Positions 1 through 3,000 of a stretch of 5,392 nucleotides of DNA are shown in pieces. Where the stretch lies: IMG/VR virus record IMGVR_UViG_2671181012_000008, positions 1 through 5,392 of that record. One strand, given 5' to 3'. The DNA comes from a virus. Its lineage: Duplodnaviria > Heunggongvirae > Uroviricota > Caudoviricetes. A program made the position numbers. Positions within the stretch are counted from its first letter, which is position 1; the number at the start of each line of letters is the position of its first letter.

Positions 1-3000
1 CTCTTCCTGTTCTCTGGTGTAAAAACCTCCCTCTCCAGTATTATCCTGTACCCCTCACGCATCTGCTGCAGGCCATCCTCCAGATAACGGTTGCGGGTCG
101 CCAGAATCACGTTCATCGCTGTCACCTGTTTCCTGCTCACATGAGCAAAAACGGCAGACAAAACTCCACGCCTGCCGTCATGCTTCATGTCACTGTCAGC
201 AATTAAAACTCAAAGTTCACACCAGCGTTCCAGGATACATCGCCATCGCTCGCTGCCACACCTGCTTTCGCTGCTGTCTGCTCATTGAAACGGTAACCAA
301 CACCCACGGCAACAGCCTGTTTGTCACTGTAACCACCAACGGCAGCAGTGGCGTTGAATTTACCCACACTGTACGGCTGGAAAAGACCTGCCAGCGCTGC
401 GCTCTGGGCTGCCGCACGTTTCATCTCTTCGTGGTTTTCATTAATCTGACGCTGATGACTGTTCAGACGTGTGTTGTGCTCCTGCAACTGACGGGAAGTG
501 GACTGAATAGCCTGTGTATTTTTAGTAACCCGGCGGTCAACACTACCAACAGTAGCATCAATACGGTCTGTTCTGCCGGACAAAGCTACAAGCCCATCAT
601 TAACAGCCAGGGTTTTGCTGGCTCCTTCTGCACGGGTCAGGGTTCCGTCGGAGTTAACACCAACTGTCGTTCTGGAGTCTGTATATTCACGAGACTTTTT
701 CGCTTCAACCACAAGGCGGGTATTCGTATCCTGAGCCAGTTGCTCAACACTGTCTTTTACACGGTCAACCTGACGAACGGTTGCAGCATCTGAGGGACGA
801 GTACCGTCACTCAGACCACCAAGCACCCGGGTTTTATAAGCCTTACCCGGCTCTGCTTCATAACCGATATAAACCTCATTGTCACGGGTTGTGCGTGAAT
901 TAGCTCCTAATGCAACACTGTTTTTATTTGTTACTGTTGCCTTTGCCCCTAACGCAGTACCTTCTGTTGCATCTTTATCAACTTTGGCTCGGTTACCTGC
1001 TGCCGTGCCATATGTAGCCGTGTTATCAACAAATGCAATGCTTCCCAGGGCTGTAGATGCATCTGCATAAGCATATGTTCCCCCACCTAAAGCCACACTT
1101 TGCTGTCCTCGTGCTGCAGACCATGATCCCACTGATGTTGCAATTTCTTTATCCGCGCTGGCCCCTGTACCAACAGCTAGCGCAATCTCTCCATCCGCGC
1201 GAGCTGAAGCAGAAAGATCTGTATTTTCTGGGATACTCCCTGAGGCGATAAGCTTATTCTCCGATGCATCCTGAGCCAGAACGCCAGCGCTTACACCAAA
1301 TAAAATACCGCCAATAACAACGGAAATAACACTTCGTGATAAAGACTTATCCATGTATGATTCCTCATGAATTTATTTGTATACAAACAAACCGAAATAC
1401 ATCGGATGAATAAAGAAAATCTGATGTATTTCGGCACCCATGAGGATATTCCTAAAAAACCCCACAAATTTAATTTTAATTTTTAGGAAATATCTTAGTG
1501 TATTTTTTACACCTTTACTCCAAATACTGGAGCACAAGGCAGAGCAATACTAAATAAAAAACTGATCTCATGCCGCTGAATATTTCACATCTGCTTACAC
1601 TGTAATTTCTGAGCAACATCACAATATCATCAAAATTTAACTGTTTAGTTCAGCCATGATATTTCCCTGCGTAATTATTACGACTCTTTCAGTAAAAACA
1701 GAAAGGGACAATCCCTCTTTTCCACCAATTACTCCTGTGCCCAGCCAACCCTGTATGCCAGGATCTCATCCGCACTGGTCAGCTTTTCCAGCTCCTTCTT
1801 CATGGTGCGCTGGCGAATGTGGATTTCCATCCCTTTAGTGAACATCGCCTGCTCTGCCGCTTCACTCAGCGCAATAAGCTCTTCTGCTGTCACCGGCACA
1901 TCATTGTTTTCCGCATCCGTCCAGAAAAACGCCTCCGGCAGTTTCCCCGCTTTCGCTGCAGCCACCGACGGCTCAAGACGCGTCTGCGTTGACTTCCCGT
2001 AGTCCCATTTACGCCCATTGTGCTCAAACGTGTAGTTCGCCGCTTCCATCGCATTACGCCAGGCGTTAATTTCATCGCCCTTCATCCCGCGCGCTTTCTC
2101 CGCGGTCAGCAGGTCCGTGATTTTCTCCCCGTCAAAACCCCAGCGCCCCGAGATGTCAGCTTTGCGGTTTTCTTCCGTATCTGCAACCTCTGCCACACTC
2201 TGGTTTACCGGCCACAGCATAGAGACATCCTTACTTATGCTGGTGATTATACCGTTACTGTCATAAACCAGCTTCAGCGTCTCCGCTGAAAATAACGACT
2301 GACACTCATACCAGTCCTGACCATCCTCTGATTTCAGGTACATCGCACCCGGCACATCAGGTTTTTCAGGGGTATAGTGCTTCAGGTTTTTAATAATCAT
2401 ATTATTCTCCGTATTTAATGCCCGGTTGGGCATAATGGAACGCAACAACCAGTGTGAGTCACGTTATTCCGTTTTAATCGTTACCCACTGGCTTCCATTG
2501 TGAACCTGAAGAAAGCCATAAGTTACAGCAGTAATTTTGTAAGCCTGTGACCGGATATTCAGAATTACAGCACCATCAGGGACTATATTCATGCCGGGAA
2601 TCGTTGGTTGTGCTCCATCCAGTGACGGGAAAGTAATCACCTCATGGTGTGCGACTTCTTTCTTCCCTCCGATACGCAGCCCACTAACCAGCGAAGTTGC
2701 GCCATCTTTCCCCGGAGGCCCCATCGGTCCCGGTTCACCGCGCTCACCTTTGGGACCTGCCAGACCTGCTGGACCTGCTTCTCCCGGATCGCCTTTGTCA
2801 CCTTTTGGCCCCTGTGCGCCTGCCGGGCCAGCAGCTCCCGTATCCCCTTTAGGTCCCTGCGGTCCTGCTGGACCTGCTGGCCCCGTGTCCCCTTTCTCTC
2901 CTTTCGGACCGGGAACACCACCTCCTGCTGCAGCCTCTTCTGCCTTTGTTTTCGCTTCATTTGCCACATCCATTGCCGCCTTCACGGCCTTCGGCGTGGC

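Follow-up and report, generated by a model that had tools for sequence, protein, structure and literature searches.

The two inverted repeats found upstream of the adhesin gene, IR-1 and IR-2, appear on balance to be parts of a conserved leader RNA of Eib-type adhesin cassettes, in which a predicted three-way junction buries the Shine-Dalgarno (SD) sequence and would by default act as a translational lock. In LEE-negative Shiga-toxin-producing E. coli, expression of Eib and related chain-forming adhesins is limited to particular conditions and depends on IbrAB, and a conserved leader RNA predicted to occlude the ribosome-binding site provides a concrete, mutable target that names the exact nucleotides to change. 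Three layers of possible control which were previously lumped together can now be set apart, namely a CRP/FNR-type upstream site, a possible attenuator and the predicted SD lock.

The adhesin gene and its leader

The window, which is the whole stretch of 5,392 nt that was analysed, carries on its minus strand a gene for an Eib-family or YadA-like trimeric autotransporter adhesin of 383 aa (203..1354; Pfam YadA_anchor and YadA_head). The locus was found to be 100% identical in the STEC O128ab:H2 strains JNEC-KY202 and KY174. A terminator-like hairpin (147..178, minus strand), read from the sequence as ACGGCAG...CUGCCGU followed by five U residues, lies after the adhesin stop codon. All other features described below are likewise on the minus, adhesin-sense strand.

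The ~140–150-nt leader containing both repeats is homologous to the leaders of eibA, eibC, eibD, eibE and eibG and of many metagenomic and viral Eib-like genes. It moves with the adhesin gene, having been found downstream of a tail-fibre-assembly gene, an LPD38 gene or IS66. A REP- or MITE-like repeat was ruled out, as just 23–55 of the 5426 E. coli genomes have the leader, in every case next to a YadA-like gene.

Geometry and significance of the inverted repeats

The arms of IR-1 (1392-1407 and 1419-1434) are 16 nt in length, 94% complementary and 11 nt apart. Its stem consists of a perfect outer 12 bp, one A.C mismatch and three further pairs closed by an 11-nt U-rich loop, with UUUGUUUGUAU directly after the hairpin. 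The preliminary description of a perfect 12-bp stem followed by a U-rich tract was therefore borne out, the tail having six U residues in eight positions; its distance of about 40 nt to the ribosome-binding site was slightly loose, since the 3' end of IR-1 lies 25 nt from the SD GAGGA (1366..1362) and 37 nt from the ATG (1354). IR-2 (1445..1494), which had been described with arms of 14–15 bp and an AT-rich spacer of 21 bp, does have arms at 1445-1459 and 1480-1494 separated by 21 nt, with a perfect 10-nt core (1449-1458 and 1480-1489). As RNA it would form an AU-rich hairpin (P0) of 14 bp with one bulged U.

Both repeats, present on the minus strand as first reported, are real and beyond chance. 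No other perfect inverted repeat in the 5.4-kb window reaches an arm length of 10 nt with a loop of 30 nt or less, and a repeat with an arm of at least 12 nt was obtained in 1 of 200 dinucleotide shuffles of the window. When the 374-nt leader was shuffled 1000 times, one repeat of at least 10 nt was seen in 23 shuffles and two in none. Folding of IR-1 as RNA gave −16.6 kcal/mol (z −6.96), with none of 200 shuffles equally stable. The corresponding value for IR-2 (z −2.33; 5/200 shuffles) is marginal given its AT-rich context.

Predicted three-way junction

The preferred reading of IR-1 is as hairpin P2 within a conserved three-way junction formed by the sense-strand RNA. In the predicted structure P2 spans 1435..1391, with IR-1 as its core and an extra G1435:U1391 pair. 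The closing helix P1, predicted in both the MFE and centroid structures and also detected as an inverted repeat, would be formed by an anti-SD 5' strand, UCCUCAUGGGU (1446..1436), and a 3' strand, AUUCAUGAGGA (1372..1362), which contains the SD. The 5' strand adjoins the 3' arm of IR-2 with an overlap of 2 nt, and formation of P1 requires a transcription start no further downstream than 1446. The third helix, P3 (1373..1390; UUGUUUG, a UAUA loop and CAAAUAA), is a near-invariant UUUGUAUACAAA hairpin holding both the near-invariant TTTGTATACA block and the U-rich tract 3' of IR-1. The junction of the window has a predicted energy of −35.5 kcal/mol (z −6.9). That IR-1 acts on the transcript is supported; its single A.C mismatch was found to be repaired by natural variants in two lineages, with C1404 to T as one mending change.

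Conservation of the fold across lineages

Sixteen leaders were folded separately, and the same P1/P2/P3 architecture was obtained in nearly all classes from sequences that differ. The family comprises only about six independent lineages. In the window and in L005, P1 is formed by UCCUCAUG:CAUGAGGA, in eibC/D/E/G by AUAUCCUG:CAGGAUAU and in the L022 class by AUACCCU-UAUGAAA:UUUCAUAGGGUAU, with a U:A to C:G change at the same position; in the eibA class (GCUCAUG:CAUGAGC) the start codon is paired instead of the SD. Pairing of the SD or start codon thus survives sequence change, with four different P1 solutions among relatives. A hairpin at the position of IR-1 is present in every leader class with differing sequences, as in L022, where P2 comprises GCAACG/CGUUGC and GUGUCAG/CUGACAC in place of the CCGAAAUACAUC/GAUGUAUUUCGG of the window. 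The suggested check of whether the repeats are conserved upstream of homologous adhesin genes thus gave a divided answer, in that the leader and the IR-1-position hairpin are kept but the symmetry of IR-2 is lost in several lineages.

A covariance model (R1) scored 62–103 bits directly upstream of the adhesin ATG at every Eib-like locus, always on the sense strand, and at most 22 bits on 0.6 Mb of control DNA picked for the P3 18-mer. The fold is therefore specific to leaders of Eib-like adhesin genes and to the sense orientation, and the model can be used to find Eib-type cassettes in genomes. In the model alignment 72.8% of cells were paired, compared with 34–46% when partners were slid by 1–3 columns, and 12 pairs had changed on both sides. 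The covariation score of 0.130 fell to 0.045–0.076 on sliding and was reached by none of 500 shuffles, these controls treating the leaders without regard to phylogeny. P3 was paired in 98.9% of cells family-wide, with its U:G wobble retained. The sense RNA was more stable than the antisense in 21 of 22 leaders, often by 8–17 kcal/mol, and was enriched in G.U pairs, which argues against a DNA palindrome or an antisense RNA.

There is no single consensus register for all classes, and P1 slides or swaps partner between lineages, so that much of the support is of the type "same architecture, different pairing" and not column-wise covariation. As helices are out of register between lineages, RNAalifold recovered only P3 from plain MAFFT alignments. 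Duplex energies of cognate and non-cognate anti-SD and initiation-region pairs formed a weakly diagonal matrix (−12.7 vs −9.8 kcal/mol), since lineages share GGAAUAUCC-type segments. A scan of genome contigs with the P3 18-mer (TTTGTATACARATMAWTT) returned 120 unrelated AT-rich chance matches and was of no use for discovery. No match in Rfam 15 was obtained at E≤1 for the leaders of the window, L001, L002, L021 and L022.

Predicted occlusion of the SD and a proposed translational lock

The SD core of the window is paired in the MFE structure and in the ensemble, with a predicted unpaired probability of 0.03–0.05 across 20–50°C, and in nine of ten representatives that of the SD core or the AUG was at most 0.03. 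In the shuffle null the mean value for the SD core was 0.23–0.42, with 0–13 of 100 shuffles as occluded. Occlusion was not significant compared with shuffles in the L021 class, and family-wide it is only the SD core or AUG that clearly exceeds the shuffles, the mean accessibility of the initiation region from −15 to +2 not doing so.

In the mechanism proposed here, a leader RNA of ~140 nt, with IR-1 as its long central hairpin P2, would form part of the Eib-type cassette. The segment just 3' of IR-2 would pair in P1 with the strand carrying the SD, and the mRNA would be poorly translated until the leader is remodelled. The IR-2 hairpin would adjoin P1 at or near the transcript 5' end, where it probably serves as a structural element, protecting the 5' end or positioning the anti-SD strand, and not as a protein recognition site. 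In this allele, a degree of premature termination may also occur at the U-rich tract 3' of IR-1. Repression of translation by the leader is predicted from these structures, and conditional control of the adhesin is supported, mainly as a translational lock.

Conditional expression of the adhesin, as proposed in the preliminary description, agrees with published work on Eib. Static, stationary-phase cultures produce Eib proteins, and more is made at 37°C than at 23°C, with similar regulation across EibA, C, D, E, F and G (PMC4352079, PMC5450701). The protein rises from near-undetectable to abundant while eibG mRNA increases only 3.16-fold (PMC4352079, PMC5450701), and a leader lock predicts that much of the control of the adhesin is post-transcriptional. 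IbrAB is needed for Eib expression according to Sandt 2002, as that work is cited in PMC7649339, and Eib regulation is listed as an open question in a 2026 study (PMC13534694). A fold that hides the SD would help to explain why the adhesin is produced under special conditions only. Since the lock is predicted to stay closed at temperatures up to 50°C, the model alone does not explain induction. Functional expression was obtained from a 168-bp eibG upstream fragment on a multicopy plasmid (PMC13534694), which indicates that the lock would not be absolute.

The proposed arrangement resembles known systems in part. The inhibitory stem in the E. coli rpoS leader is opened by DsrA, RprA or ArcZ with Hfq. 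As is predicted for the adhesin mRNA, the ribosome-binding region there is paired with a more upstream part of a long 5' leader, and default translational repression is relieved by a trans-acting factor under stationary-phase or temperature-related conditions. However, there is no sequence or Rfam relationship between the two, and the adhesin leader is predicted to form a three-way junction found only with a prophage adhesin cassette. RNA thermometers include the fourU and ROSE types and the lcrF thermometer upstream of the Yersinia YadA regulator. The pairing of the SD by a pyrimidine stretch (UCCU:AGGA) and the higher Eib expression at 37°C than at 23°C (PMC4352079) are reminiscent of such elements. 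The predicted structure of the adhesin leader is, however, far too stable, with an SD unpaired probability of 0.05 from 20 to 50°C, and a thermometer of the fourU or ROSE type was rejected, the predicted SD helix being unchanged over this range and no Rfam thermometer match being obtained.

IR-1 as a possible terminator

The preliminary description took IR-1 for a terminator or attenuator. If it were an intrinsic terminator, most transcripts would stop at the U-tract and expression would need read-through or antitermination, an arrangement that could coexist with the SD lock. In the window the hairpin (13+3 bp, −16.6 to −18.6 kcal/mol) has a G+C-rich base and is followed at once by UUUGUUUGUAU, and the eibA, L021 and L022 classes likewise have a U-rich tail (5–6 of 8) after P2. 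The number of U residues in the first 8 nt after the stem is six in the window, the eibA class and L021 and five in L022, but only four in eibC/D/E/G and two in L005. Across the leaders the P2 hairpins are long (41–61 nt) and AU-rich, with loops of 11–15 nt or internal loops; that of the window (43–45 nt, 11-nt loop, five G:C among the outer 12 pairs) is not a compact G+C-rich hairpin of the terminator type. The terminator scan reported nine sites, and the IR-1 hairpin was not among them. The U-tract itself is one strand of the conserved P3 helix, no conserved antiterminator pairing was identified in a look that was not systematic, and the covariation of P1 requires transcripts which run past IR-1. 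Termination at IR-1 is therefore considered unlikely as the main form of control. What stands of the terminator proposal is the terminator-like U-rich tail in the window; as this tail appears poorly conserved, attenuation is a secondary possibility, and the conserved feature is the junction pairing the SD or start codon.

In Shigella, the autotransporter adhesin gene icsA is also reported to be controlled through a leader hairpin, the antisense RNA RnaG causing attenuation by antisense-induced termination. The adhesin leader differs in showing no antisense promoter and no antisense-favoured structure, the sense strand being favoured in 21 of 22 leaders.

Promoter region

The adhesin had been thought to have no room for a promoter of its own. 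This does not hold, as there are ~250 nt of leader specific to the cassette upstream of IR-1, preceded by a terminator-like hairpin (1718..1702) identified by the terminator scan behind the tail-fibre-assembly gene. This putative terminator would separate phage late transcription from the adhesin cassette. The leader carries a candidate −10 hexamer, TACACT (1502..1497), belonging to a TAnnnT motif whose T and A are invariant in 16 of 16 leaders, the most distant included, and it is at this motif that family-wide conservation of the leader sets in. From the invariant TAnnnT, transcription is predicted to start at ~1490, and this motif together with the onset of conservation suggests that both P1 strands are on the mRNA. 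No consensus sigma-70 promoter was found on the minus strand of the window by the promoter scan.

Two other promoters were considered and rejected. For one downstream of IR-1 (GATAAT in eibA/C/D/E), the window has AATAAA at that position, the start would hit the SD and P1 covariation would be unexplained. A class II CRP promoter with an extended −10 (TGaAATATT, 1587..1579) is found only in the window and is absent from relatives.

Further upstream is a CRP/FNR-type site, TGTGA-TGTTGC-TCAGA (1608..1623), with one mismatch to TGTGA-N6-TCACA; the chance expectation for such sites in the window is 0.14. Seven leader classes have such a site, with one mismatch or none, between −268 and −284 relative to the ATG, and the N6 spacer differs in each.

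These features also bear on a reading in which the leader works chiefly as DNA, being AT-rich, horizontally acquired and silenced, for instance by H-NS, and counter-silenced by CRP/FNR-type and IbrAB factors, the repeats being incidental or elements of curvature. Induction at 37°C and in stationary phase is typical of silenced islands. The leader has a G+C content of 30–36%, its CRP/FNR-type site is conserved, IR-2 is only marginally beyond chance and Eib proteins are induced at 37°C and in stationary phase (PMC4352079). Silencing does not account for the greater stability of the sense strand, its G.U pairs, the compensatory changes seen in both P1 and P2 or the mending of the IR-1 mismatch, and IR-1 is far beyond chance. 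As the main mode of action of the leader it is very unlikely, but silencing of the region is compatible with the RNA lock and the two can coexist.

IR-2: hairpin or operator

IR-2 starts 3 nt after the invariant TAnnnT and had been proposed as an operator for a dimeric protein. Such a site, for a dedicated repressor or activator which may be linked to IbrAB, would lie at or just downstream of the promoter, and the 14–15-nt arms with their 21-nt AT-rich spacer do follow the −10-like TAnnnT directly. Short TCC ... GGAAT elements are widely conserved, and sense and antisense strands of IR-2 fold equally well, leaving no RNA-strand signature. The inverted symmetry is, however, not significant (z −0.8 to +1.5) in L005, L007, the L022 class or eibC/D/E/G, the last group being the IbrAB-responsive genes. 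The spacing of half-sites is not kept either, since the 3' arm with which this 5' segment pairs is a different one, at a shifted position, in the eibA class and in L009, and the conserved GGAAUAUCC of the 3' arm is accounted for by its role in or next to P1. One 5' segment with three different 3' arms in three lineages is more readily explained by selection on a hairpin than on a fixed protein-binding site. An operator is thus quite unlikely, and IR-2 is more likely a lineage-variable hairpin near the transcript 5' end.

Such a placement recalls the 5'-terminal stabilising stem-loops of the ompA and papA mRNAs. With a transcription start ~7 nt after TAnnnT, the mRNA would have the perfect 10-bp core of IR-2 at its extreme 5' end; the parallel is limited by the hairpin being weak or absent in several lineages and by the start site being inferred. 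A 'stem_loop' is annotated in the GenBank records of prophages P-EibA/C/D/E (AF151091, AF151674-AF151676; Sandt and Hill). This AT-rich palindrome lies ~100–140 nt upstream of each eib ATG at a position homologous to IR-2, but it is the only hairpin annotated, the IR-1 hairpin, SD pairing and P3 block being without annotation.

A possible upstream ORF

A possible upstream ORF (uORF) of 22 codons (MGAEIHQIFFIHPMYFGLFVYK; 1373..1441), which is weakly supported, begins within the P1 5' strand, and its stop codon, the last 3 nt of the P3 3' strand directly before the P1 3' strand, lies 6 nt short of the SD. The 3' arm of IR-2 carries an AGGA (1453..1450). A two-tier switch can be envisaged, in which IR-2 masks this AGGA, and opening of IR-2 by warmth, a protein (e.g., an IbrAB-dependent factor) or an sRNA would permit uORF translation from AUG 1441. 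Ribosomes travelling through P1, IR-1 and P3 to the stop codon, 6 nt ahead of the adhesin SD, would then unzip the lock so that the adhesin is translated. As a joint reading this is highly doubtful. Equivalent uORFs are absent in the eibC/D/E/G and L021 classes, and where a uORF is present its length is not beyond chance (P(shuffle) 0.17–0.30). They occur in four of about six lineages, including the L022 class, L005 and the eibA class, in which the uORF has an AGGAG of its own and its stop codon overlaps the SD or the adhesin AUG. The reading frame across the P3 block differs between these uORFs.

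Organization of the adhesin locus

Read on the minus strand, the window was found to be the tail end of a lambdoid prophage. It carries a tail-fibre gene (4200..2464; Pfam Collagen with three stretches of collagen-like G-X-Y repeats, plus phage_tail_N and Phage_fiber_2), a DUF4376 tail-fibre-assembly gene (2448..1729) with a terminator-like hairpin after it (1718..1702), an AT-rich intergenic stretch of 374 nt, and the adhesin gene, which encodes a YadA-like trimeric autotransporter of 383 aa (1354..203) and is likewise followed by a terminator-like hairpin (178..147). As such hairpins follow both the adhesin and the tail-fibre-assembly genes, the adhesin cassette has the appearance of a self-contained "moron" that brings a leader and a terminator of its own. 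STEC O128ab:H2 strains JNEC-KY202 and KY174 carry the locus with 100% identity, and at full length it is rare (9 of the 5426 complete E. coli genomes). Amid the tail genes lies a hok/sok-type toxin-antitoxin module (4347-4631, minus strand) with a 46-aa Hok/Gef ORF (Pfam HOK_GEF, 6e-11), overlapped by a sok-like antisense RNA region (Rfam RF01794, 55 bits, slightly below the gathering score of 59).

Inverted repeats and conservation of the leader

Inverted-repeat analysis of the window confirmed the two repeats of the preliminary description, IR-1 (1392..1434) and IR-2 (1445..1494); no other perfect inverted repeat in it combines arms of 10 nt or more with a loop no longer than 30 nt. The arms of IR-1 are 16 nt each (12 perfect outer bp, one A.C mismatch, then three pairs) and enclose an 11-nt loop; the perfect 12-bp stem and U-rich tract described for the transcript were both seen, with UUUGUUUGUAU directly 3' of the repeat on the adhesin-sense strand. 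IR-2 has 15-nt arms (14 bp and one bulge) with a perfect 10-bp core and an AT-rich spacer of 21 nt. Of 200 dinucleotide shuffles of the window, one produced an arm of 12 nt or more, and none of 1000 dinucleotide shuffles of the leader produced two repeats of at least 10 nt. The RNA folding z-scores were -6.96 for IR-1 and -2.33 for IR-2, the latter being marginal for a sequence so AT-rich.

In E. coli ECOR-9, the sequences preceding eibA, eibC, eibD and eibE share 67-73% identity with the leader, and the GenBank records of these genes already annotate a "stem_loop" feature at the position of IR-2. The leader also precedes eibG (JNEC-KY208) and, across E. coli genomes, viral contigs and gut metagenomes, many further YadA-like genes; more distant adhesin relatives (loci L025, L181, L182, L214 and L234-236) lack it. 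The gene 5' of the leader varies (a tail-fibre-assembly gene, an LPD38-domain gene or, at one locus, an IS66 transposase), which argues that the leader is part of the adhesin cassette and not of the phage tail operon. The expectation that both repeats recur upstream of homologous adhesin genes held for the leader and for a hairpin at the IR-1 position; the symmetry of IR-2 is significant in some lineages but not in others. At two loci, L015 and L229, the leader is matched in full (764-867, 95.5 bits), with an ORF for a truncated adhesin C-terminus ~1.5 kb downstream, and the adhesin gene there is probably interrupted.

Predicted structure of the leader RNA

Leaders were folded one by one, each from the 3' edge of IR-2 up to the start codon. 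A three-way junction was common to nearly every lineage, consisting of a closing helix (P1), a long hairpin at the position of IR-1 (P2) and a short hairpin on a near-invariant UUUGUAUACAAA block (P3). In the predicted fold of the window (minus strand), P1 pairs 1446..1436 (UCCUCAUGGGU) with 1372..1362 (AUUCAUGAGGA, which holds the Shine-Dalgarno (SD) sequence GAGGA), P2 spans 1435..1391 and P3 1390..1373, with zero unpaired junction nucleotides and an energy of -35.5 kcal/mol (z = -6.9). P1 is AUAUCCUG:CAGGAUAU in eibC/D/E/G and AUACCCU-UAUGAAA:UUUCAUAGGGUAU in the L022 class of loci, where C:G replaces U:A at the same position, while in the eibA class it is GCUCAUG:CAUGAGC and lies on the start codon rather than the SD. 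The P2 of L022 (GCAACG/CGUUGC plus GUGUCAG/CUGACAC) has almost no sequence in common with IR-1 of the window. For 9 of 10 representatives, the probability that the SD core or the AUG is unpaired did not exceed 0.03.

A covariance model built on the junction matched every Eib-like locus with 62-103 bits, each time in sense orientation and directly upstream of the ATG; in 0.6 Mb of control DNA, picked because it carries the P3 18-mer, no score exceeded 22 bits. On the model alignment 72.8% of cells were paired, compared with 34-46% when partners were slid by 1-3 columns, and the covariation score was 0.130 compared with 0.045-0.076; none of 500 shuffles equalled the observed values. Twelve pairs were altered on both sides, and the "unpaired" cells came mostly from the abundant eibA class, where the P1 partner is different. 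Sense folds were more stable than antisense folds in 21 of 22 leaders, often by 8-17 kcal/mol, via G.U pairs, which favours a sense RNA over a DNA palindrome or antisense transcript. E. coli FHI_NMBU_11 has a natural copy of the locus with 97.7% identity, in which IR-1 carries a single substitution, C1404 to T; this turns the A.C mismatch into an A-U pair, a repair also found in eibA-class variants.

No block of the whole leader is more conserved than the P3 sequence TTTGTATACAAA (1373-1390, minus strand), a perfect 12-bp palindrome; conservation so strict suggests that a further partner, protein or RNA, recognizes the sequence. The apical loop of IR-1 (1408-1418, minus strand; AUCAGAUUUUCUUUAU including flanks) is better conserved in sequence than the stem and is U-rich in all lineages compared, and could be a site for a trans-acting factor. 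The leader of locus L163 (749-866) is recombinant, with IR-2 and P2 of the L021 type and a ribosome-binding region of the eibC/D/E type; leaders appear mosaic.

Role of IR-1

IR-1 had been read as a terminator or attenuator, and in the window the hairpin and U-tract do resemble one. However, the hairpin has a large loop and is both long and AU-rich, a terminator scan gave no match there, and the U-tract, which doubles as a strand of the conserved helix P3, is reduced to 4/8 U in eibC/D/E/G and to 2/8 in locus L005. Termination is therefore not upheld as the main role, partial attenuation being a possible extra in the window allele. Since P1 covariation requires transcripts that reach the SD, sequestration of the SD or start codon is taken to be the function that the leaders conserve, and the best explanation for IR-1 is that it forms the core hairpin of a conserved, predicted SD-sequestering leader RNA. 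Such leaders are already well known, and the Eib-type leader would be a fresh example; no Rfam family matched it, and no description of its structure was found in the Eib literature searched. The proposed lock, in which translation would be low by default, is predicted to stay closed throughout 20 to 50 C and would thus not be a simple RNA thermometer; active remodelling would be needed to open it.

Upstream region and IR-2

No consensus sigma-70 promoter was found by scanning the minus strand of the window. Family-wide conservation starts abruptly at TAnnnTAAG, immediately 5' of IR-2 (TAnnnT at 1502..1497, minus strand), the T and A of TAnnnT being invariant in 16 of 16 aligned leaders. Judged by sequence, TAnnnT is a candidate -10; if so, transcription would start near 1490, with the perfect core of IR-2 at the mRNA 5' end. 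Further upstream is a match to a CRP/FNR-type site (TGTGA-N6-TCAGA; 1623..1608, minus strand). Seven leader lineages conserve such sites, with at most one mismatch, between -268 and -284 relative to the ATG, the 6-nt spacer differing from lineage to lineage, and the surrounding block is the best-conserved part of the upstream leader (five lineages). As these conserved candidate elements lie upstream of IR-1, the earlier concern that there is no room for a promoter does not hold. The CRP/FNR-type site is ~120 nt from the putative -10, a distance that fits no standard activation class.

By folding z-scores, the IR-2 hairpin is significant in the window (-2.3), the eibA class (-3.1 to -4.3), L009/L017 and L031, and not significant in eibC/D/E/G, L005, L007 and the remaining L022 class; no strand bias was seen in sense versus antisense folding. 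The conserved pieces of the region are AAGAnAAWUCC on the 5' side, directly after TAnnnT, and GGAAUAUCC on the 3' side, within or abutting P1. For L009 and the eibA class, the partners of this 5' segment are different 3' arms at other positions, which fits selection for a hairpin and does not fit a fixed dimer operator. The proposal that IR-2 of the window is the operator of a dimeric regulator is thus not supported, though for the window allele it stays a low-probability reading, and the folds describe IR-2 as a lineage-variable flanking hairpin. The FHI_NMBU_11 copy has a second change, G1460 to A, which lengthens IR-2 by one pair.

Relation to Eib expression

Induction of Eib proteins is described for static cultures in stationary phase, for reduced oxygen and for 37 C as against 23 C, and eibG mRNA rises only 3.16-fold under induction (PMC4352079). 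EibA, C, D, E and F behave as EibG (PMC5450701), and high Eib expression is stated to require IbrAB (Sandt 2002, as cited in PMC7649339). A 2026 adhesin study, in which complementation used a 168-bp eibG upstream fragment, still terms regulation of these adhesins an open question (PMC13534694). Conditional control by the leader on the transcript, as put forward in the preliminary description, agrees in spirit with the conserved leader RNA and the induced Eib proteins, and fails in its details (terminator and operator). The role of the leader RNA is predicted here from fold and conservation, and its transcription start is one that we infer.

Possible upstream ORF

A possible 22-codon upstream ORF (1441..1373, minus strand) starts in the anti-SD strand, takes in IR-1 and P3 and stops 6 nt short of the adhesin SD. 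Four lineages have equivalent ORFs, which read the P3 block in differing frames and are absent from eibC/D/E/G and L021. None of these ORFs is longer than chance would give, and a part for them in control of the adhesin is a low-probability reading. AGGA in the 3' arm of IR-2 is a possible SD for this ORF.
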